Positions 18,685 to 36,194 of a DNA stretch of 64,000 nucleotides are shown piece by piece (position 1 is the first letter of the stretch; each line of letters begins with the position of its first letter). The translations under genes and the position numbers were made by a program. Origin of the DNA: an uncultured Phycisphaerales bacterium (GTDB lineage Bacteria; Planctomycetota; Phycisphaerae; Sedimentisphaerales; Anaerobacaceae); contig OY970359.1 of NCBI GenBank assembly GCA_963718665.1, positions 640,001-704,000 of the forward strand, written 5' to 3'. Under the pieces are notes generated by a model, which saw only the letters and a program-made list of their open reading frames with translations, did no database searches and was not told where the DNA came from.

Positions 18685-19058
18685 TCCGTCGCCTCCCGAC
18701 AACCGCCTGTCTGAATATGGCTCATTATGTTCTCCTCTGTTGCCTTGTCCCCTCCCCGCCAAAGCTCCCCTCATTATACCCTTTTAAATCCCCTTTTCAA
18801 GCGGTTCCCGCCTGTGGCAGGCTTTACTTTGATATTGGGCATTGGATATTCGATATTGGACATTCAATTCAGTCCTCCATCCACCTTAACTCAAAACTAA
18901 ACACTAAAAACCCCTTCTCCCTTCTAACTTCTGCCTTCCCCTTTCTCGATGGCTGAAAAATACTTGCCTTGCCCTGCCGGCAGGGATTATACTTCCCCAA
19001 AGAAAGCGGCTCAAAATAGCGAGATTGAAATAATGTCTGTTTTTGGAGGTCTATCAAA

Positions 19059-26248: not shown

Positions 26249-26896
26249 ATGAAGATTCAATTTGCGATTAATGTGCCGAGGCGGTTAGAGGTTGCGCTTG
26301 TATGGGTGGTTTTGAACTATCGCCGATTGCGCTACGGCGAGGCGTTCAGAATCATACCGCTTACAAAAGGATTGCGAGCAATCGTATCGCCTGAAGATTA
26401 CGACCGGCTTGCCGCGTGCAACTGGTGCGCGTCCAAATGCCGACATACAATTTATGCCCAGCGAACAGCCAGAACAACATCTGGCCCAAAAAGGCAGCAT
26501 AACGTGCGAATGCATCGCGAAGTGTTAGGCATCACCGATGACAGGTTCGTTGACCATCAGAATCACAACGGCCTCGACAACCGCCGCTCAAACCTGCGAA
26601 TTACCACACCCGCCCAGAATGGCTGGAATAGAAATAAAACCGCCTCCTCGTGTTCCTCTCGTTTCAAAGGTGTGTGTTGGTCAAGAAAGATGGTCAAATG
26701 GCATGCCCAAATCAAAGAAAACGGCAGACAGACAACTATCGGCTATTTTGACGATGAGGAATCGGCTGCGAGGGCCTATGACGCCAAGGCAAAGGAGCTT
26801 TATGGCCAATATGCTGCGTTGAATTTTCCGGGGCCGGAAAAAGACCCATTGGCCAAATGGAGCAATGCGATTTGCTACGGGAAATTCACAGGATAG
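26249..26896 (+). CDS. HNH endonuclease with C-terminal AP2 domain
   Basis: MHREV...VDHQNHNGLDNRRSNLR (HNH_3); SRFKGV...W.AQI...IGYF...AARAYD...LNF (AP2). Confidence 0.9.
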   Translation: MKIQFAINVPRRLEVALVWVVLNYRRLRYGEAFRIIPLTKGLRAIVSPEDYDRLAACNWCASKCRHTIYAQRTARTTSGPKRQHNVRMHREVLGITDDRFVDHQNHNGLDNRRSNLRITTPAQNGWNRNKTASSCSSRFKGVCWSRKMVKWHAQIKENGRQTTIGYFDDEESAARAYDAKAKELYGQYAALNFPGPEKDPLAKWSNAICYGKFTG

Positions 26897-27003: not shown

Positions 27004-27078
27004 GGTGAGAGTAGCTCAGTTGGATAGAGCATCGGATTGTGGTTCCGAGGGTCGCGGGTTCGAATCCCGTCTTTCACC
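27004..27078 (+). tRNA. tRNA-His (GTG)
   Basis: Cloverleaf: G-1, acceptor GTGAGAG/CTTTCAC, anticodon arm TCGGA-TTGTGGT-TCCGA, T-arm GGTTCGAATCC, discriminator C; CCA not encoded. Confidence 0.97.
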
Positions 27079-27188
27079 CTTTCCCGGTTATCAACAAGGG
27101 ATGAGAACACGCCTGACGCGAAGCGGCAGAGCAGGGTTCGACACGCCGAAGGCGGGCCTCGTTTCGAGAATCCCGTCTTTCACCCTTT
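27062..27188 (+). repeat. 21-bp direct repeat of the tRNA-His 3' end flanking an 85-bp structured insert
   Basis: GAATCCCGTCTTTCACCCTTT at 27062-27082 and 27168-27188. Confidence 0.9.
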
Positions 27189-27243
27189 TTTTGGGGTTAG
27201 ATATTGAACGCAGGATATGGCGGATTAACACCAATGACGAATG

Positions 27244-27372
27244 TTAAACGCCTTCCATCCACAATGCCCGAATCAGCGGTGAATTCATTAATATGACGGC
27301 TGCCAAAAAACCAATAGACAGCAACAGGGGGAACAGTAACACATCTTTGAATACTACATAAATCTTTGACAT
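27244..27372 (-). CDS. 42-aa single-TM microprotein
   Basis: AAGGAG RBS, then MSKIYVVFKDVLLFPLLLSIGFLAAVILMNSPLIRALWMEGV*; below the ORF-track cutoff. Confidence 0.65.
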   Translation of the reverse strand: MSKIYVVFKDVLLFPLLLSIGFLAAVILMNSPLIRALWMEGV

Positions 27373-27588
27373 GGCAAACACTCCTTTTTGTTACAATTGC
27401 CGAACTTATCCCTTATCTGCGTCTTTCCTGACACAGGTATTACTTGCGCGAGCCGGTTGGATTCCAGGCCCGATATTTCCGCGACCAAATAATACTGGGC
27501 CGAACAGGTTTGTTAACCTGACCGGCCCGGCGACTTTCACACTGTTATCTTAAAGCACAATCGCACAAACGATTATGCGAACAGCCAT

Positions 27589-28012
27589 GCTGGGTTCGCC
27601 TGTTTTTGCAAACAAGACCTAACCCAGCGAAGAAAAGGGAGAGAAACTAATTTACCCGCCTCCACTACTACTTTACCCGCCTCCACTACCGTATTACTAT
27701 CGCAAACCTGAGGTCTGCGTTTTTGGACTGCTGGATTTGTGTAGAGAGTCCAAATCCAGCGAAGAAGGGGAGAGAGAATGAGTTTATTACCTTGTCGCGG
27801 CCGATTGACCGCGTATGGTTACGAGCTGGATTTGAGAAGAGAGAGAGTATCAAATCCAGCGAAGAAGGGAGAGAGAATATGTGTAGAATTTGTTATCTTA
27901 ATCACCCCGCTCTAAACAGAGCAGGATGTCGATATTCGTGCCGGGTTCGTTTACCTCGCTTTAGATTATATAATCTGTCTGGGGTAACAAACCCAGCTTG
28001 GGGGGAGAAAAC
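27589..28012 (-). ncRNA. Candidate array of four sibling sRNA units (CU-rich tract + GCTGG...CCAGC hairpin)
   Basis: Units at 27589-27646, 27730-27779, 27825-27878 and 27979-28012; CAAATCCAGCGAAGAAGGG is identical at 27751 and 27851. Confidence 0.55.
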
Positions 28013-28133
28013 TCCTCGTGAGCTATCTAATCACGGCGAGGGCCGTGCGTGCTCTCAGAAAGATGATGGCTTTTCAAAACCCCGACAGGTCTCGGCGAAA
28101 TCGCCAAGCCGCAGCCGGATAAGCCATCGTAAA

Positions 28134-28562
28134 TCAGCCTTCTCTCATTAGCTCCTCAACATTACCAGCAGAAAATAATATTGCCTTGATAGCAACGCCA
28201 TCCTGGATACCGAGCAGATTGGCAACCGTGTCTCTTAAGACATTGTCGGTTGCGTCCTCAGCAAGGACCGCAGAGACGCCCAAAGACCTGGCAGCGATTT
28301 CCTGAGCTTTGCTGCCTGGCTTTACGATGGCAATCGTAGGGATATAGGGTTTAGCCGCTTTGAAAGATTTGAGAAATCTTCCATCGGGCATATCATCCAA
28401 ATCCCATCTGCTGATTACGCTGTTCACCTTTTCATTTTTCAAAGAACGAGCAGCCTCACGACCTGACTGCATTTTTATCAACCTTATCGGCAGTTCCCTT
28501 AACACTTCACTTCTGCCGCCTAAGCCCACTGTTAAAACTGTCGCCTGAACAAGAACTACCAT
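28134..28562 (-). CDS. Atypical stand-alone receiver (CheY-like) protein
   Basis: Receiver pattern (SGREA, VISRWDLDDMPDG, PTIAIV, ARSLGV) with acidic pocket, phospho-Asp and Lys replaced. Confidence 0.7.
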   Translation of the reverse strand: MVVLVQATVLTVGLGGRSEVLRELPIRLIKMQSGREAARSLKNEKVNSVISRWDLDDMPDGRFLKSFKAAKPYIPTIAIVKPGSKAQEIAARSLGVSAVLAEDATDNVLRDTVANLLGIQDGVAIKAILFSAGNVEELMREG

Positions 28563-28633
28563 CTACGTTCCTAAGTACTCTGCGGCTTATTCGCCTACGG
28601 GTGTTTTTATTTTTTTTCTTCGCTAATATATAA

Positions 28634-28650
28634 AGCGAATGGCGTGCCAG
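28634..28650 (-). promoter_or_regulatory. Sigma54 (-24/-12) promoter
   Basis: Minus strand CTGGCACGCCATTCGCT: TGGCACG and GG-N10-GC, about 70 nt upstream of the receiver-gene ATG. Confidence 0.8.
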
Positions 28651-28748
28651 ACCGTGCCGCGAAAAAAAGTATTTTTTAAGTCGTTTACAGCAAAGGAGTT
28701 ACATTGGTCGATTTTTACAGAGGCCTTGATAAGGCATAAAACAATTGC

Positions 28749-28853
28749 CGACCATATTGGTCATAGATAGGCGACAATTATTGTCGTAAGTCATTGCGTT
28801 AGAATGGGACTTCGATGATATGACCACTTTGGCCGGGGGCGACCGAAATGGAA
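28749..28853. promoter_or_regulatory. Four GAC-N7-GTC-type palindromes, candidate upstream activator sequences
   Basis: GACCATATTGGTC (28750), CGACAATTATTGTCG (28772), GACCACTTTGGCC (28822), GACCGAAATGGAA (28841); 100-200 bp upstream of the sigma54 promoter. Confidence 0.6.
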
Positions 28854-29221
28854 CATCTTCCTCACCCCCCTGCTTGCCACGGTGTAGCCATAGGCGAAGC
28901 CGAATCCGCTATATTCTATACGCTGCTTGCCACGGCGAAGTTGAATAACGAAGCCGGGTATGCTGCCTGCTATGCAGGATATTATTGACGAAAGACAAAA
29001 ACTGGGGGATTGGGGGAATCTATTTCCGATTGCAGATTGTAGATTTGAAAATGGGTCCCCTGTTCTTGGCCAAGTAAGCAGCACTCGGGGATGACGCTTC
29101 GCGCCAATTGCGGATTTGGGATGAGGAGGATGCGGTTTTTAGATGTTGAAAAATGATACCGCTTGCGGTATTGTGGGGGCGGGAAGTTGGGGAGAATTGA
29201 AGTCGATGGAGTTATGTAAGG

Positions 29222-32200
29222 ATGGCGAAAACAAAAGCAAATGAGCGGGAATTTGCGGGGCAGGTAATCTCGTGGATAAAAGAGCAGTTGAAAGAAGGCG
29301 GATTGCCTTTTGAGAATGCCACGAATGACTCAAGTTTATATGGATTGCCACGAGTAAAATTCCCTGATGTTTTACTGACACAGGATTTTGAAGGTTTGCG
29401 GCCATTTTGCGGATGGGAATTGAAGACACCGAAAACGGATGCACGTGACAAAATACTTTTGAAGGACGCCGTCAAGAAGGCACAGACGATTGAGGCAAAG
29501 AACTTTGTTACGTGGAATATGCAAACGGCAATAATCTGGAAAACACCCGAGAAAATAAGGGCGACTGTCAACGAGGACGACAAGATTCGAGAATACGATA
29601 CTGATACCCAGATTACGAAAGTCGAAGATATCAGGGACAGACAGAAGGCGGATTGTCTCAGAGAGAGGTGTCGGGAAATAGTATCTGACCTTGGGCGACT
29701 TTACGAGGAAGAGAAGATAAATATACCAGTAGCAGACGCAACGGTTTTCGTTGGAATGGTTGGAGCTGCTTCTGAGAAAATGGCAAGTTCGCTTTTAGCG
29801 GATATAAACAGGGCAAGAGCGAACAGGGAATTTGCCAAGAGATTAAATGCCTGGGCGGCCAAGCAGGGAGTTTCTAAATACGACCAGGATTACTGGCAGA
29901 CACTTTCACAACAGATATCATACAAGATAATAGGCAAAATTCTGTTTTACCTAACCCTTCGACGACAAAACCAAAATCTTCAGAAAATGGCCCTGAATGG
30001 CGACAACTACAAGGCCGCAATGAAACGTATGCGTGCAATGTTTCAGTCGGCATTAGAAGTTGATTATCAGGCAATATTTGAGTCGGACATTACGGACGAA
30101 ATAGAGCTTTCAAGAGATACGGCAGAGGTGGTAATTGACCTTACGGACAAACTAACCCACTGGAGTTTCGAGCAAGTGCCGTTAGACGTGGTGGGAAACG
30201 TTTTGGAAAAGTTAGTGCCGGAGGATGCACGACACAGTTTAGGTCAATATTTTACACCTGACCGGTTATCAGATTTGGTAATTGCGTTTTGCGTAAACAA
30301 TGGCGATGCGAATGTGATGGACCCGACATGCGGAACTGGGACATTTTTAATTCGCAGTTATAATCGGTTGCGGCATTTGGGACTAAAAAGGCAGGCACAT
30401 CACGAATTGCTCAATCAAATTTGGGGGTTTGACATAGCGGGATTTCCGGCGGAATTAGCAACTATAAACCTTTGCAGACAGGATTTGGGCGATTATCTGA
30501 ATTTTCCACGAGTTTTATCAAAGGACTTTTTTGATGTGTCGCCGGGTGAGGAATTTGAATTTCCACCTGCAAAGAAAACGATAAAAGCCGGGGAACGAAT
30601 ACGCGTCAAAATTCCGAAATTTGATGCGTTGGTGGGAAATTTCCCGTTTATCAGGCAGGAACTTATTGAAAAGGTTGAACCGGGATATAAAGACCATCTT
30701 GCAAGAGTGTTGTATAAGAATTGGGGATTGGAATATCTAGATTTATTTCCTAACGTGAAGCAAGAGGGGCAAGGGGAACAGGAGGTAGAACTTGCCCTAT
30801 CGGGACAGGCGGATATTTACGCGTATATGTTTTACCACGCGGCGGCGCACCTTAAATTGGGCGGACGGATGGGGTTTATCACGAGCAATTCCTGGTTAGA
30901 TGTTGCATACGGGTATGAATTGCAGAAGTTTTTCCTTTCGAAGTTTAAATTAGTGGGGGTTTTTGAAAGCAGGTGCGAGCCGTGGTTTGAACAGTCGGCA
31001 GTAAATACTGTTTTCACGATTCTGGAAAGATGCAACGATAAAGAGGAGATAGAAAAGAATCCGGTTTACTTCGTTAAAATGAAAAAACCTTTGTCGCAAC
31101 TTTTCCCGCAGGACGCCTTGACTGATACACAGGCAAGATGGGACGCGATAACAAGGTTTGCGGAAAAGATAGAAGAACTGGGTATTAGAGCAGAGAACAT
31201 TGGAAAGACCGGGTTTGGCAAGAGTAAAGGGTTTAAAAGGTTTGAAAAGATAAACGCCGAATACGTAAAACAGCCGGAGATTGTGTCATACGAAGATGAT
31301 GAAGTTAGGGTGAGGATAATCAAGCAAAAGGGTTTAAAGGAAGAAGTTGAGGCGACAGAGCAGACAGTAAAGTGGGGACAATATCTGCGCGGGCCGGATA
31401 TTTACTTTGAAGTATTGGAGAAGTGCGCAGACAAACTTATACCACTCGACCAAATTGCAGATATTCGTTTTGGGATCAAGACAGGTATAAACGAATTTTT
31501 CTATTTAGATGAAGACCAGGTTAAGCATTGGGGTATTGAAAAGAAATTTTTGCAACCTGTTATGAAATCGCCGAAAGAATGTGATGGAATTTTACTAAAG
31601 CGGACGGATTTGAAACTCTTTGCGTTTGTATGCAATGAAGATAAATCAGAGTTAAAGGGAACGGGTGCGCTGAAATATATCAAATGGGGTGAGCAACAAA
31701 AAACGGAGGAAGGAAGGCCGTGGCCGGATGTGGAAAGCGTAAAGGGAAGGGGAAATTGGTATGAGTTACTGAAAAGAGAGCCGGGGAAATTGTTGCTTCC
31801 AATGATTACAGGGGACAGTTTGCGATGTATCGTAAATGAATGCAATGCTTATGTGGACCACAATCTATTTGAGGTTATTTCGGAAGACAAGGATATTCTC
31901 GCGGCGCTGGGATTATACTTAAATAGCACGGCAGCGTTTCTTAGCAGAGAGTTGACGGGACGGGCTAATCTGGGGGATGGCGCCTTGAAGGTTGAGGGTA
32001 CAGATTGGGAAAGGATGCTTGTCCCGAAAAAAGATGTATTATTAGAATTGGCCAAAGAGGCAAAAGAACAATTTGGAGTACTTTGCAGACGCAGTATCAA
32101 AGATATTGAAACAGAAGCCAAACGACAAGACCGCGTAGAATTTGAGGCGAAAGTTTTGGAAGGGTTAGGACTATCAGGAAAATTTTCAAGTGATATTTTG

Positions 32201-32719
32201 GCAGCGGTAGTCGATCTTGTCGAGGAGCGACATTTACTGCCGAAGATGCGGACAGTGAAGAAAAAGAAACGAATCGAGCATGATTTGGAGAAGTTGAAGG
32301 AGGAGGTTACGGAGGAAATATTGCCGAGCGGAGTGAAGAGATTTCCCAATGCATTTGTTAAAGCAGGCTCAAAGACGGAATGGGAAGAGATAGGGATAGG
32401 GGCAGAGAGGATAAAATTAGGTGAGAGGGGAATAGGGGTGCAGGAGATATGCGACGCAGAGGAGAATCATTTGATGGAGGTGCGGTCGATTGAGAAGGCC
32501 AAGTATATAGTGTATGGGAAGCAAAAAGATGAACAGATAGTAAAGGTGCCGGATAGCGCAATAGTAATAAAGAAGGCGGTAAAAGATTATGAGATTTACG
32601 CACGCCAGATAAAAGAGGAATTATACAGGGCGTTTATGGAGAAGTGCGGCGACCATCCGCTTTCAGAAAATCTAACGATGCAGGTTCTTGAGGAATATGG
32701 TTTACCGGATGCGAGGTGA
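29222..32719 (+). CDS. Type IIG-like fused restriction endonuclease/N6-adenine methyltransferase
   Basis: N-terminal FPDVLL...WELK (PD-(D/E)xK); LGQYFTP, MDPTCGTGTF, GNFPFIRQE, GFITSNSWL; TRD-like C-terminal half. Confidence 0.88.
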   Translation: MAKTKANEREFAGQVISWIKEQLKEGGLPFENATNDSSLYGLPRVKFPDVLLTQDFEGLRPFCGWELKTPKTDARDKILLKDAVKKAQTIEAKNFVTWNMQTAIIWKTPEKIRATVNEDDKIREYDTDTQITKVEDIRDRQKADCLRERCREIVSDLGRLYEEEKINIPVADATVFVGMVGAASEKMASSLLADINRARANREFAKRLNAWAAKQGVSKYDQDYWQTLSQQISYKIIGKILFYLTLRRQNQNLQKMALNGDNYKAAMKRMRAMFQSALEVDYQAIFESDITDEIELSRDTAEVVIDLTDKLTHWSFEQVPLDVVGNVLEKLVPEDARHSLGQYFTPDRLSDLVIAFCVNNGDANVMDPTCGTGTFLIRSYNRLRHLGLKRQAHHELLNQIWGFDIAGFPAELATINLCRQDLGDYLNFPRVLSKDFFDVSPGEEFEFPPAKKTIKAGERIRVKIPKFDALVGNFPFIRQELIEKVEPGYKDHLARVLYKNWGLEYLDLFPNVKQEGQGEQEVELALSGQADIYAYMFYHAAAHLKLGGRMGFITSNSWLDVAYGYELQKFFLSKFKLVGVFESRCEPWFEQSAVNTVFTILERCNDKEEIEKNPVYFVKMKKPLSQLFPQDALTDTQARWDAITRFAEKIEELGIRAENIGKTGFGKSKGFKRFEKINAEYVKQPEIVSYEDDEVRVRIIKQKGLKEEVEATEQTVKWGQYLRGPDIYFEVLEKCADKLIPLDQIADIRFGIKTGINEFFYLDEDQVKHWGIEKKFLQPVMKSPKECDGILLKRTDLKLFAFVCNEDKSELKGTGALKYIKWGEQQKTEEGRPWPDVESVKGRGNWYELLKREPGKLLLPMITGDSLRCIVNECNAYVDHNLFEVISEDKDILAALGLYLNSTAAFLSRELTGRANLGDGALKVEGTDWERMLVPKKDVLLELAKEAKEQFGVLCRRSIKDIETEAKRQDRVEFEAKVLEGLGLSGKFSSDILAAVVDLVEERHLLPKMRTVKKKKRIEHDLEKLKEEVTEEILPSGVKRFPNAFVKAGSKTEWEEIGIGAERIKLGERGIGVQEICDAEENHLMEVRSIEKAKYIVYGKQKDEQIVKVPDSAIVIKKAVKDYEIYARQIKEELYRAFMEKCGDHPLSENLTMQVLEEYGLPDAR

Positions 32720-32977
32720 GAGGTTTCTCAAGTATGTTTTTCGTAGTCGATAAGGGGCGATAGTAGAAGGCAAGAAATAGCGTACAGCGTACAGCGGACA
32801 GCGTGTAGTTGAAGATGGAACTTGAGGTGTCCGAAAAAATCGGACAACTGAAATCGCGATAGTAGAAGGCAGTGATAAGACAGAGGACGGAGGGCAGAGG
32901 GCGAAAGAAGGAATCGTCCGGCGTTAAGTTGTCCATACTTTGTGTACAACTGAAAATAAAGGTGGTAGTTAAGAGGG

Positions 32978-33826
32978 ATGAACCGTATGGAAACGACAAA
33001 AATAGCCATTTTCAGAGGCAAACAGATAAGAAAAACCATTCATAAGGACGAATGGTGGTTCTCGGTTGTTGATGTGTGTGAGGCATTGACTGAAAGCCCT
33101 GATGCCGGAGCGTATTGGAGAAAGTTAAAACAAAGACTAAAAGAAGAAGGAAGTGAAGTCGTGACATTTTGTCACGGGTTGAAATTGGAAGCGCCGGACG
33201 GTAAAATGCGTGATACTGATTGCGCTGACACGGAAGGCGTATTCCGCATTATCCAGTCAATTCCCAGCCCCAAAGCGGAACCCTTCAAACGCTGGCTGGC
33301 AAAAGTCGGCTATGAACGCATCCAGGAAATTGAAGACCCTGAACTTGGAACAAAGAGAACTCGCGCACTATACAAGGCCAAGGGGTATCCCGACGGCTGG
33401 ATAGAGAAGCGTATGCGAGGCATTGCCATCCGCGAGGAATTGACGGAGGAATGGAAAGAACGGGGCGTAAAAGAGGAACCGGAATACGCCATCCTCACCG
33501 CGGAAATCTCGAAGGCAACGTTCGGACTGACGCCTTCACAATATAAACGGCTTAAAGGATTGAAACGCGAAAATCTGCGCGACCATTTCAACGACCTTGA
33601 GCTGATATTCAATATGTTAGGTGAGGCAGCAACAACGGAAATAACGAGGAATAAAGACGCGCAGGGATTTTTGGAGAACAAGGAGACAGCCCGCGAAGGA
33701 GGCGAGGTGGCGGGCAAAGCCAGAAAGGACCTGGAGTCGCGGACAGGCAGGAGAGTAGTATCCCGTAAGAATTATCTGGAGGGACCTCCGGACAGAAAGG
33801 CATTGCCGGAGAAGAACAACCGATGA
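32978..33826 (+). CDS. BRO-N domain / phage antirepressor-like DNA-binding protein
   Basis: IRK..WWFSVVDV, YWRKLKQRL, SIPSPKAEPFKRWLA, ENLRDH. Confidence 0.88.
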   Translation: MNRMETTKIAIFRGKQIRKTIHKDEWWFSVVDVCEALTESPDAGAYWRKLKQRLKEEGSEVVTFCHGLKLEAPDGKMRDTDCADTEGVFRIIQSIPSPKAEPFKRWLAKVGYERIQEIEDPELGTKRTRALYKAKGYPDGWIEKRMRGIAIREELTEEWKERGVKEEPEYAILTAEISKATFGLTPSQYKRLKGLKRENLRDHFNDLELIFNMLGEAATTEITRNKDAQGFLENKETAREGGEVAGKARKDLESRTGRRVVSRKNYLEGPPDRKALPEKNNR

Positions 33827-33939
33827 GCGAGGTTGTTTCGGTCATTTCTGGTATGACCCTGATGTTTGGCGACAAGAGTTAAATCCGTCTGTTTATTTCG
33901 TGGTTGAGATTCTAAAAAAGAGCCGGTATCCTGTCAGCA

Positions 33940-34640
33940 ATGAATAACGATGTCGCATTAGGCCTTGCGTGGTACGTGGTATTCGTCCTGTCGCTGAGCT
34001 TTCACGAGGCGGCGCATGCGTTTGCGGCGATGAAACTCGGCGACAAGACCGCGTATTACGGCGGACAGGTCAGCTTGCATCCGTTTGCACACATGAGGAG
34101 AGAACCCATCGGGATGATTGTGCTGCCGATTATATCGTATATTTTAAACGGCTGGATGATTGGATGGGCGAGCGCGCCTTATGACACCGCCTGGCGCAGC
34201 GCCATCCGAAACGCGAGATAATGATGGCGATGGCGGGACCTGCGGCAAATCTTATTCTTGCTATCGCCGGCGTGGTGATAATCCGAGTGGGATACGCGAT
34301 GGGTTATTTTTCTCCGCCGGCAAGCATCACGTTTTCGCATATAGCTGACGTGGAGAGTGCGGGCTGGGCGAACAGCATAGCGGTAATGACGAGCATACTT
34401 TTTACGCTCAACTTAGTGTTGTTTATTTTTAACCTGTTACCTATACCGCCATTGGACGGAAGCTGCCTTGTGCCTCTGGTTTTGGACAGTGAAAACGCTT
34501 ATAAATACAAAGCCCTTATCAGTCAGCCATCCGTCGCGATTATCGGATTGGTAATCGCGTGGCAGGTTTTCGGTTATATATTTGCCCCGATTCACCTCTT
34601 CGCGATTAATCTTCTCTACGCCGGCCATCACTACGGTTAG
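33940..34640 (+). pseudogene. Site-2 protease (M50), apparent 1-nt frameshift near 34193 (possibly a sequencing error)
   Basis: HEAAH in the first frame; AGPAANL and FNLLPIPPLDG in the next frame. Confidence 0.8.
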
Positions 34641-34715: not shown

Positions 34716-35789
34716 TTACTGTTTTGCGTTTTCGTCGGCTTCGGCGGCGGGGATGCCGAATTTTCCCATAAGGCGATTGAGCTGGCGGCGATCGATGCCG
34801 AGAATTCTTGCGGCGGCGATTTTTCGGCCTTTGGTGTATTCGATGGTCTGGGTAATGACCCTGCGTTTTACTTCATCGAGGGTCGGCAACTGGTCTTTTG
34901 GATAAGAAGGCGAATCAGCTATTATGATTTCGAAAGGCATTACGGCGGGCTGAATTTCGGGGCCCTCAGTGAGGACGTAAGCACGCTCGATGGCGTTGGC
35001 GAGTTCGCGGACATTGCCGGGCCAGGCGTAGCTAATCAGGAGGCGTCTGACGGATTCACTGAATGTCTTGGGCGGCTCGTTGTAGAAGGCCGACTGGTTT
35101 TTGAGGAAGTATTCGGCCAAATCGAGGATGTCTTCTTTGCGATGACGAAGTGGAGGCACCTCAAGCTGAACAACATTGAGGCGGTAATAGAGGTCTGAAC
35201 GGAACGTGCCCTTTTTGACCATATCCTGCAGGTCCTTGCAGGTCGCGCACAGGACGCGGGCATCGACGGGATACGACATAGCGGAGCCGAGGGGCGTTAC
35301 ACGTCGTTCCTGGAGGACGCGGAGGAGCTTTGCCTGAAGCTCGAGGGGAATTTCGCTTATTTCGTCGAGGAAAATCGTGCCGCCATCTGCCGCCCTGAAG
35401 AAACCGAGCGTGCTGTCAACGGCGCTTGTGAATGCGCCTTTGACGTGGCCGAATAACTGGCTTTCGAATAACTGGCCTGTAAGGGTGGTGCAATCGACGG
35501 GAACAAAAACGCGGTGGGCGCGACTGCCTGAGACGTGAATTTGGCAGGCGACCATTTCCTTGCCGACGCCTGTTTCGCCGGTAATAATAACCGGACATTC
35601 GCGGGTGGCAATAGCCCTGATAACTTCCATTACGGAGTTGAACGCGGCGGAACTGCCGAGAAAATGATTATGCGTGCGAGTATAAAATGACTGCGCAGAC
35701 GCAGAATCCTGCTGTCCGTGCTTGCCGCTTCCATTCTGAAAGCTCAGCTCTTTTGCGCCAGGAGGCACCTTGCGCGAACTATCACCCAT
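34716..35789 (-). CDS. Sigma54-dependent enhancer-binding protein (AAA+ plus Fis HTH) without a regulatory domain
   Basis: GETGVGKE, ESQLFGHVKGAFTSA, FLDEI, WPGNVREL, AARILGIDR; only about 40 residues precede the AAA+ domain. Confidence 0.93.
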   Translation of the reverse strand: MGDSSRKVPPGAKELSFQNGSGKHGQQDSASAQSFYTRTHNHFLGSSAAFNSVMEVIRAIATRECPVIITGETGVGKEMVACQIHVSGSRAHRVFVPVDCTTLTGQLFESQLFGHVKGAFTSAVDSTLGFFRAADGGTIFLDEISEIPLELQAKLLRVLQERRVTPLGSAMSYPVDARVLCATCKDLQDMVKKGTFRSDLYYRLNVVQLEVPPLRHRKEDILDLAEYFLKNQSAFYNEPPKTFSESVRRLLISYAWPGNVRELANAIERAYVLTEGPEIQPAVMPFEIIIADSPSYPKDQLPTLDEVKRRVITQTIEYTKGRKIAAARILGIDRRQLNRLMGKFGIPAAEADENAKQ

Positions 35790-36194
35790 TACTTATCGCC
35801 CCATCTCCAGTGCAGACACATTCTCCCCTGCACCGCTGCAAAAACACAATTTTGGCGAGAATACCCTGCGTGAAGGTGAGGGCACTCTCTCCCATTTCTT
35901 CTTCATATCTTATTCTACGTTACTTAAGGAACAAAGTCAAATGAATTATAGGACTTTTTGTTTTTTGTTGCAGAACAAGCAAAATTGGCATGATAGATAA
36001 AATTGGCTTGAGGTCTAAAAGCAGCCCCAAAAACAGCTAACTTGTTTTGCTGCAAGAGGTTACGACTAAAGGTACGGCGATTATTCAAGTGGATGGCAAA
36101 ATAGAGGACAAGCAATGCTATTTTCTAAGCCAAATTCAATATACTACAAAGCCCGTATGAAAACAGTTATTAGGCGACAAAAACCCTCAGCCCC

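Follow-up and report, generated by a model that had tools for sequence, protein, structure and literature searches.

We find that a conserved σ54-type promoter, a stand-alone pseudo-receiver gene and an array of structured RNA units travel together in the order Sedimentisphaerales, and that the seeds of these units are predicted to pair with two mRNA leaders, one belonging to the probable activator of the promoter and the other to a PEP-CTERM cluster. The most likely outcome is that the array damps its own activator, a reading to which we assign a probability of roughly 0.55. The window, by which we mean the whole 64-kb stretch of DNA analyzed (G000:C1:640001–704000), comes from a 2.6-Mb genome that is 94.6% complete. 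Re-reading the sequence confirmed the presence and position of every element that the original prediction had placed in 27244–28853, and synteny across Sedimentisphaerales shows joint conservation of the promoter, its enhancers, the pseudo-receiver and the structured RNA array.

A single-protein scan recovered relatives of the 142-aa pseudo-receiver ORF in 33 of 41 genomes of the order; in a phylum-wide draw they occurred in 4 of 300 genomes, three of these four lying within the order. The receiver gene and a close ortholog of the σ54 enhancer-binding protein (bEBP) described below are both absent from five genomes of the order, and in three genomes (G010, G027 and G040) the bEBP is present without the receiver gene. 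The genome under study contains rpoN, RNase E/G, two CsrA genes and four full σ54-activator domains, that is, three bEBPs besides the headless one considered here. Profile searches of this 94.6% complete genome gave no match for Hfq (PF17209, 0 matches) or for RNase J.

The control region ahead of the receiver gene comprises the following elements:

28841–28853, no strand assigned: enhancer site 1, at about −203, imperfect (weight matrix and conservation)
28822–28834, no strand assigned: enhancer site 2, at about −184 (weight matrix and conservation)
28773–28785, no strand assigned: GAC-N7-GTC match, poorly conserved
28750–28762, no strand assigned: enhancer site 3, at about −113, perfect palindrome (weight matrix and conservation)
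28677–28701, no strand assigned: conserved inverted pair between the enhancers and the promoter (alignment of loci)
28635–28649, minus strand: σ54 −24/−12 promoter, GG-N10-GC, predicted start near 28623

The −24/−12 promoter, already part of the original prediction, is kept as TGGCAC-N7-G[CT] in all 29 loci that have upstream DNA. Four GAC-N7-GTC enhancer sites had been proposed, and three of them stand: the palindromes at about −203, −184 and −113 are kept in 27, 28 and 26 of the 29 loci, respectively, with a conserved consensus of GACCA-N3-TGGTC and a fixed spacing. The fourth, at 28773–28785, scores in 8 of 29 loci and, judging from this conservation, is probably dispensable. A weight matrix trained on seven distant-family loci only returns exactly these sites as its best cluster in the 2.6-Mb genome, at 57.3 bits against 25.6 bits for the next independent cluster. 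Since a matrix derived from distant loci picks the same cluster, the arrangement is more than chance. The same genome scan found no second strong cluster of the kind that a wider enhancer regulon would show. The inverted pair at 28677–28701 may be an IHF-site-like element.

The gene behind this promoter encodes a small protein of receiver fold:

28134–28562, minus strand: stand-alone pseudo-receiver, 142 aa, without acceptor Asp, acidic pair or Lys

Its Pfam receiver match lies below the cut-off (E = 0.0014). The AF2 model (pLDDT 80) contains five strands and five helices in a (β/α)5 receiver fold, and Foldseek returned receiver domains, among them Spo0F with an E value of 4.7e-7 and an rmsd of 1.6. 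In canonical receivers, the acceptor aspartate ends β3, an acidic pair follows β1 and a lysine follows β5. Here, R52 occupies the acceptor position, G13–L14 that of the acidic pair and A101–E102 that of the lysine, and an aspartate at the end of β3 is found in 0 of 22 aligned rows. Both the fold (AF2, Foldseek) and the missing residues (22-row alignment) agree with the earlier description of a receiver-fold gene lacking the phosphorylation residues. The best NCBIfam matches are the receiver parts of the σ54 regulators GlrR and LuxO, which would be compatible with a split regulator, short of proof.

The probable activator is encoded within the same window:

34716–35789, minus strand: headless σ54 enhancer-binding protein, probable activator, AAA+ and Fis-type HTH

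Apart from a variable N-terminal tail of about 40 aa, its domains are the AAA+ and HTH only. The σ54-contact loop, previously read as GAFTGA, is GAFTSA, with the F and T intact; the genus has GAFTSA or GAFTTA, and GAFTGA or GSFTGA occurs elsewhere. The F and T of the GAFTGA loop are the residues named as essential in the cited section of PMC3105312. The bEBP gene is found upstream, on the same strand and within 10 kb, for 24 of the 37 receiver places, which belong to 22 of 33 genomes, and for 14 of the 37 it is no more than 600 nt from the receiver gene; for the remaining 13, it belongs to a different contig, lies 107 kb away or was not found. This tight linkage bears out the proposed association of the headless bEBP with the system and, together with co-conservation, suggests that the protein probably drives the σ54 promoter. 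Its score against TIGR02915 (PrsR) is 280.9 bits, below the cut-off of 502.6 bits, and no kinase gene was seen beside it within the 64-kb window.

Between the receiver gene and the end of the locus lies a non-coding stretch of 761 nt (27373–28133) that holds four RNA units:

28030–28056, minus strand: half unit (linker and second hairpin) before unit 1
27903–28017, minus strand: RNA unit 1, with seed 27994–28014 and hairpins 27940–27997 and 27903–27928
27796–27877, minus strand: RNA unit 2, with tract 27861–27877 and hairpins 27825–27860 and 27796–27813
27701–27778, minus strand: RNA unit 3, with tract 27761–27778 and hairpins 27730–27760 and 27701–27719
27651–27690, minus strand: tandem 21-nt purine-rich duplicate between units 3 and 4
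27561–27646, minus strand: RNA unit 4, with tract 27629–27646 and hairpins 27589–27628 and 27561–27580

A unit opens with a pyrimidine tract that leads into helix 1; an A-rich linker connects this helix to helix 2, and an A-rich spacer closes the unit. Earlier, the pyrimidine tracts had been placed in hairpin loops; they are instead single-stranded, 5′ of the first stem (helix 1). The purine-rich duplicate at 27651–27690 is complementary in cis to the unit-3 tract, and the tract-plus-stem pattern of unit 3 was found nowhere else in the genome by pattern search and BLAST. Automated extraction gave 2–7 units at each of 34 loci, a set that includes one false unit in L024 and one locus cut by a contig end. 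In 35 non-redundant, sequence-aligned units, helix 1 is 95.4% paired and shows double changes in 8 of 10 pairs; slid controls reach 26–49%, and 0 of 500 shuffles attain the observed pairing, a test that kinship among the units inflates. For helix 2, which was anchored on motifs and not on complementarity (70 units without anchors were skipped), 153 of 183 inner pairs are formed in 61 distinct arm pairs, versus 96 ± 6 when shuffled. One of the alignments (A3) leaves out one locus that runs off its contig. Compensatory changes in helix 1 and excess pairing in helix 2 thus support the repeated hairpin units first seen by eye in this one sequence. A covariance model of the unit matches 25 of 61 genomes of the order.

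Rfam searches returned, for the region, tRNA-His and one chance match (Ms_IGR-2, E = 1) and nothing else, and for six related loci a tRNA only; the units have no Rfam family. The tRNA-His and a 21-nt copy of its 3′ end are located just downstream of the array. We also considered, and rejected, the idea that the units generally pair with the 5′ end of their own array: such pairing (at ≤3/100) is found in only 9 of 33 loci, seven from close relatives and two of f6.

RNA contigs from four peat metatranscriptomes, the best holders among 14, derive from relatives 80–99% alike and cover most of 27203–28603, that is, the receiver gene and the array; they carry neither strand nor level, and DNA carry-over is possible. 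One contig of 570 nt spans from the 142-aa ORF into unit 2. Contigs end at 28603 and 28588, and none lies over 28663–28986, though the DNA is conserved up to about 28860. Gaps in the cover, such as 27610–27690 in three runs, count as no evidence. The array is apparently transcribed together with the receiver gene.

The downstream end of the array is marked by two further features:

27497–27528, minus strand: end hairpin, with a weak U-tail here; in distant families a T-run usually follows
27244–27386, minus strand: ribosome-binding site (RBS) and 42-aa hydrophobic microprotein (ORF 27244–27372, AAGGAG 27381–27386)

At eight distant loci, the loop of the end hairpin could base-pair with the helix-1 loops, and this complementarity comes in three sequence versions. 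Over 25 units (one skipped), we counted 258 Watson–Crick pairs, 34 G–U pairs and 8 mismatches, where about 12 wobbles would be expected at random; because the departures are mostly G–U, this complementarity points to RNA–RNA pairing. The pairing is lost in the window's genus, and its loss, together with the weak U-tail, fits read-through into variable downstream genes, either the 42-aa ORF or secreted proteins. At L020, the downstream protein has a PEP motif. The 42-aa membrane ORF had been taken for a core part of the system; with matches in 13 of 30 loci (L001–L030), all in one genus, it is accessory.

The predicted targets, which the original prediction missed, are sites at the 5′ termini of leaders rather than ribosome-binding sites. 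For units 2–4, the site lies in the leader of the bEBP gene:

35912–35940, minus strand: σ70-type promoter of the bEBP gene, TTGACT-17-TAGAAT; same arrangement in other bEBP loci
35885–35904, minus strand: predicted target of units 2–4, a purine tract right at the 5′ terminus of the bEBP leader
35798–35808, minus strand: G-rich segment ahead of the bEBP start, a predicted alternative pairing partner for the strand adjoining the target

The tract at 35885–35904, found by searching for the complement of the unit tract, lies about 100 nt before the bEBP start codon, directly after the TTGACT-17-TAGAAT promoter. A cis hairpin, closed by 35857–35867, takes in the 3′ half of this tract as its 5′ strand, and in the 19 non-genus leaders that we folded, as in the genus consensus, the site is in the 5′ strand of the 5′-proximal hairpin. 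The purine site is kept in all 20 bEBP loci fetched, and the reading frame around it varies. A uORF in the bEBP leader was rejected as a candidate feature, because its frame and stops vary from genome to genome.

Among 912 promoter-like 5′ ends, a filter picked after both targets were known, the bEBP leader ranks first for unit 4 and second for units 2 and 3; ranked by raw duplex energy across 41,658 purine-rich windows, it misses the top 18 for units 2–4. Other high-ranking 5′ ends are those of a rhomboid gene (window position 18772) and of G000:C1 9790, 121705 and 155640. Cognate pairing beats shuffled leaders at ≤3/100 in 28 of 29 genomes, G039 being weak at 19/100, with tracts of low complexity and mononucleotide shuffles. 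With seven lineages, permuting seeds and leaders gave 7 and 11 of 5040, and with eight it gave 8/40320 and 7/40320; on raw scores, the cognate leader comes out as the best partner in only 3 of 7 columns. Of the pairs from G335 and from genomes newly found with the covariance model, with G354, G362 and G364 left out, 10 of 14 testable ones reach ≤8/200, and the four that fail include two with poor promoter calls and one with a single unit found. In f3 and f6, a unit-1-type seed matches the bEBP leader instead of the PEP-CTERM leader, and in f5 one 12-nt loop is common to the units and the bEBP leader.

Unit 1 carries its own seed, distinct from those of units 2–4, and its predicted target is located outside the window:

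G000:C1 about 734265–734293, minus strand: predicted unit-1 target in the leader of the PEP-CTERM cluster

This match is the best of the 41,658 windows genome-wide (−31.9 kcal/mol), and among the 912 promoter-like 5′ ends it reaches −36 versus −28 kcal/mol for the next. The bipartite target (11 bp + 10 bp) immediately follows a TTGACT-17-TTTAAT promoter. A gene cluster lies 370 nt downstream of the site; of three proteins tested there, two pass the PEP-CTERM cut-off. The site recurs as a locus of its own in 20 of the 23 other genomes of the genus, and the pattern in reverse was seen in 0 of 41. Across 18 aligned leaders, two of them cut by contig ends, the promoter and site are nearly invariant and the next ORF has a PEP motif in 13; the cognate pairs reach −34 to −38 kcal/mol in 17 of 17. 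As both partners are almost invariant, this pairing rests on co-conservation, not covariation. In five genomes outside the genus, no exact complement of unit 1 turned up beyond the array, and the PEP-CTERM target is therefore demonstrated for the genus only. When the site is occupied in silico, the consensus leader fold switches from S1:S2 to S2:S3, and accessibility of the Shine–Dalgarno (SD) sequence rises slightly, from 0.47 to 0.52. No terminator was called in this leader, and a σ54 motif upstream of the PEP-CTERM genes was found in 0 of 18. RNA contigs cover the leader in three of four runs, one of them ending at the predicted start. From these sequence comparisons, we consider it very probable that the pairing of the units to the leaders is real.

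Taken as a circuit, these parts would work as follows. The receiver-less bEBP, expressed from its σ70 promoter, would bind the three palindromes and fire the σ54 promoter, and one transcript would carry both gene and array, as suggested by the RNA contigs of relatives that bridge them; this transcript may be cut into units at the A-rich linkers. Units 2–4 would first bind the purine toehold exposed where the bEBP mRNA begins and then invade the 5′ hairpin; the freed leader strand would shift to the region of ribosome binding, and less activator would be made. In the 370-nt PEP-CTERM leader, unit 1 would open the 5′ hairpins and flip S1:S2 to S2:S3, and we lean towards activation of the PEP-CTERM cluster by this unit. 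The pseudo-receiver may act in trans as the activator's missing regulatory domain. As no Hfq was found, the bipartite duplexes of 17–21 bp would form unaided.

The sign of the feedback was modeled by blocking the site in silico. In 9 of the 21 genus leaders, blocking brings the next strand to the RBS region, and in 0 it draws the strand away; SD accessibility falls in 12 and rises in 2, with a small mean change (0.44 to 0.39). Outside the genus, accessibility goes down in 7 and up in 5 of 19 leaders, showing no trend, with start codons that are uncertain. The folds thus weakly suggest negative feedback on the activator, and we lean slightly to that sign; in the cited part of PMC3262071, the Qrr RNAs likewise repress luxO. 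A possible but doubtful alternative keeps the same pairing and reverses its sign, so that the units would stabilize or anti-terminate both leaders, giving positive feedback and a bistable surface-protein switch, with the pseudo-receiver acting as a brake on the bEBP as PspA does on PspF. The shared design of the two targets, a toehold and a 5′ hairpin far from the RBS, suggests a single sign, and the slight opening of the bound PEP-CTERM leader points the same way, as do the stabilization of ska mRNA by FasX binding at its 5′ UTR (in the cited part of PMC11005410) and the activation of aphA by Qrr from a site about 130 nt upstream (as given in the same portion of PMC3262071). Most f7 leaders also have a U-run after the hairpin. 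Directly after the hairpin, however, such a run is absent in most lineages, the PEP-CTERM leader has no called terminator, and in the genus the bound fold moves towards RBS occlusion, all of which count against the positive sign.

The array might instead be a general anti-SD sRNA cluster of the cuckoo/CcsR kind, acting on many RBSs, with the two leader matches incidental or minor. Its tracts look like the 3′ end of 16S rRNA, the genome is enriched in AAGGAG-type SDs and several PEP-CTERM RBS regions pair at −21 to −25 kcal/mol, but both best targets are 100–370 nt from start codons, the motif is outside the loops, and the seeds change by lineage in step with the bEBP leader, which is unexpected for a universal SD target; we judge this unlikely. 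The roles could also be reversed or protein-based, with the leaders serving as decoys that titrate the array or the array as a sponge for an RNA-binding protein with sites in loops and linkers. Copy number varies (2–7), as in sponges, f5 shares its 12-nt loop between units and bEBP leader, and CsrA is encoded twice; against this unlikely reading, the units are poor in GGA loops, the loop/end-hairpin departures are mostly G–U (34 wobbles and 8 mismatches, with 11.7 wobbles expected) and the leaders precede real genes. Least credible of all are DNA-level repeats without an RNA role, duplicated beside a tRNA integration hotspot: near-identical duplicated units and the downstream tRNA-His with its 21-nt copy would suit them, whereas the compensatory and G–U changes, the RNA contig cover, the order-wide linkage to the promoter and the complementary targets elsewhere would not. 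The reading in which the array pairs with both leaders and damps its activator is the one that we carry forward.

Compared with known systems, the array resembles the Vibrio Qrr/LuxO circuit in having RNA behind a σ54 promoter with a linked bEBP, a likeness drawn at the level of sequence. According to the cited portion of PMC3262071, a σ54 bEBP drives the paralogous sRNAs Qrr1–5, which act back on the mRNA of their activator, pair with different targets through different regions and depend on Hfq. Unlike Qrr, the units follow a single promoter and a single gene as a tandem array, the probable activator lacks a receiver and the predicted targets are at the very 5′ ends of transcripts; no Hfq was found, and there is no Rfam match to the Qrr family. 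The original analogy to LuxO/Qrr holds at the level of the circuit, which works like LuxO/Qrr yet is not a member. The Alphaproteobacterial CcsR/cuckoo RNAs (RSs0680, NfeR1/ar14) share clustered modular hairpins and anti-SD-like pyrimidine motifs, and NfeR1 feeds back on ntrBC independently of Hfq (sections cited from PMC4615179 and PMC10746234). The likeness suggested earlier is nevertheless superficial, because the motif here is outside the loops and the cluster has no DUF1127 gene. In those sections (PMC4615179, PMC10746234), the hairpin loops of cuckoo RNAs bear CCUCCUCCC, and NfeR1 binds its target at the translation-initiation region, whereas our tracts are single-stranded 5′ of helix 1 and are predicted to pair at leader 5′ ends. 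The tract also varies by lineage while the stems are conserved, the linked gene encodes a pseudo-receiver, and Rfam gave no match to cuckoo/CcsR.

In myxobacteria, the Pxr sRNA is found downstream of the σ54 activator gene nla19, and Cystobacter has tandem paralogs of it; a separate σ54 promoter serves each pxr paralog, and the cited passages describe no pseudo-receiver (PMC5568312). Inspection by eye found no GG-N10-GC promoter inside 27373–28133, and Pxr has no sequence or Rfam match to the array. Similar to the headless bEBP, PspF and HrpRS consist of AAA+ and HTH only and are controlled in trans by a separate protein, PspA or HrpV (PMC3105312, in the part cited); the candidate trans partner here differs in having a receiver fold, and its binding is putative. 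PrsK/PrsR of Proteobacteria ties a σ54 activator to PEP-CTERM surface proteins (cited part of PMC1569441), but the present bEBP falls below the PrsR cut-off and has no receiver, and its PEP-CTERM link would run through RNA. A literature search that reached few subscription journals did not find the system described, nor any paper combining 'Sedimentisphaerales' and 'small RNA'.

A wider interpretation, which we offer tentatively and think possible rather than probable, is a chaperone-free, multiplexed toehold-switch system. Interchangeable RNA modules on one σ54 transcript would each trigger a different leader (the activator, the PEP-CTERM cluster and perhaps more), loop-to-end-hairpin pairing would gate the array, and a split NtrC-type regulator made of a headless ATPase and a trans pseudo-receiver would set surface-protein output in Sedimentisphaerales. 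The units constitute an RNA family with two specific, conserved and mutation-testable predicted targets, one of which co-evolves with its seed. They also provide a first candidate for regulation of PEP-CTERM surface proteins where promoters of the Proteobacterial PrsR type were not found. Tandem modules that work without Hfq and act on the very 5′ ends of leaders built of a toehold and a hairpin would depart from the usual sRNA that blocks a ribosome-binding site.

Eight loci in relatives of the source organism (L024, L025, L026, L028, L029 and L067 to L069) show complementarity between the loops of the tandem two-hairpin RNA units and the loop of the hairpin that ends each array, in three co-varying sequence versions. 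In the genomes of f5, a family outside the window's genus, the same 12-mer is also present in a hairpin loop of the leader of the headless sigma54 enhancer-binding protein (bEBP) gene, and at L067 to L069 motifs similar to the loop motifs are repeated 3' of the end hairpin. The complementarity is lost in the window's own units. A long array in G031 (L136) is built of near-exactly duplicated units with tracts of UUC repeats; the bEBP gene of this genome lies 107 kb away, and its leader contains a GAA-repeat tract that matches them.

The three loci L067 (G035), L068 (G034) and L069 (G015) represent the whole system in a second, paralogous copy, with a PEP-CTERM gene immediately 5' of the bEBP gene, a secreted-protein gene following the array, and a different sequence upstream of the promoter. 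The sole homolog of the receiver outside the order, from a draw of 300 genomes across the phylum, is L137 (G140), where neither a sigma54 motif nor an array was seen on inspection by eye. Both G027 and G040 (84% and 96% complete) encode a bEBP ortholog with a purine-tract leader, and the receiver and units were not found in them with the queries used.

In the window, the bEBP gene is separated from the enhancers by intervening genes:

Window 29222-34640: genes separating the bEBP gene from the enhancers

These encode a large restriction protein that contains a methyltransferase, a BRO-N protein and, in two frames, an M50 peptidase. In relatives the gap can be as short as 0.3 kb or as long as 8 kb, which suggests an insertion hotspot. 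Two features lie beyond the other end of the array:

Window 26249-26896: HNH/AP2 gene, upstream of tRNA-His
Window 27005-27188, plus strand: tRNA-His and 21-nt repeat

The repeat, which overlaps the tRNA-His 3' end, recurs as an exact copy 106 nt past the tRNA and resembles an att-site remnant. The adjacent 42-aa microprotein (27244-27372) belongs to a family (L009, L090) of 45-95% identity with a C-terminal W-x-E/D-G. G012 and G013 carry two copies of it, and no Pfam or NCBIfam family corresponds to it.

Elsewhere in the source genome (94.6% complete), RNase J has no match, and the matches to the RNase E/G gene (G000:C1 1467992-1468800) fall in two frames, possibly through a frameshift or an assembly error. 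Three 5' regions may bear on the pyrimidine seeds of the units:

Window 18740-18800, minus strand: sigma70-like 5' end, G-rich start
G000:C1 9790, minus strand: sigma70-like 5' end, G-rich start
G000:C1 733921-734330, minus strand: leader of a PEP-CTERM-containing gene cluster (L127)

The first two have similar G-rich starts and rank high for the seeds, and a rhomboid-like protease gene lies downstream of one of them. The third is a conserved leader of 370 nt, 5' of a cluster with PEP-CTERM genes, in which the promoter and 5' hairpin are invariant. About 110 nt from its start lies another unit-1-like site, and it also carries an inverted TAAGT/ACTTA pair and additional tracts of purines; this leader may be a regulatory RNA by itself.
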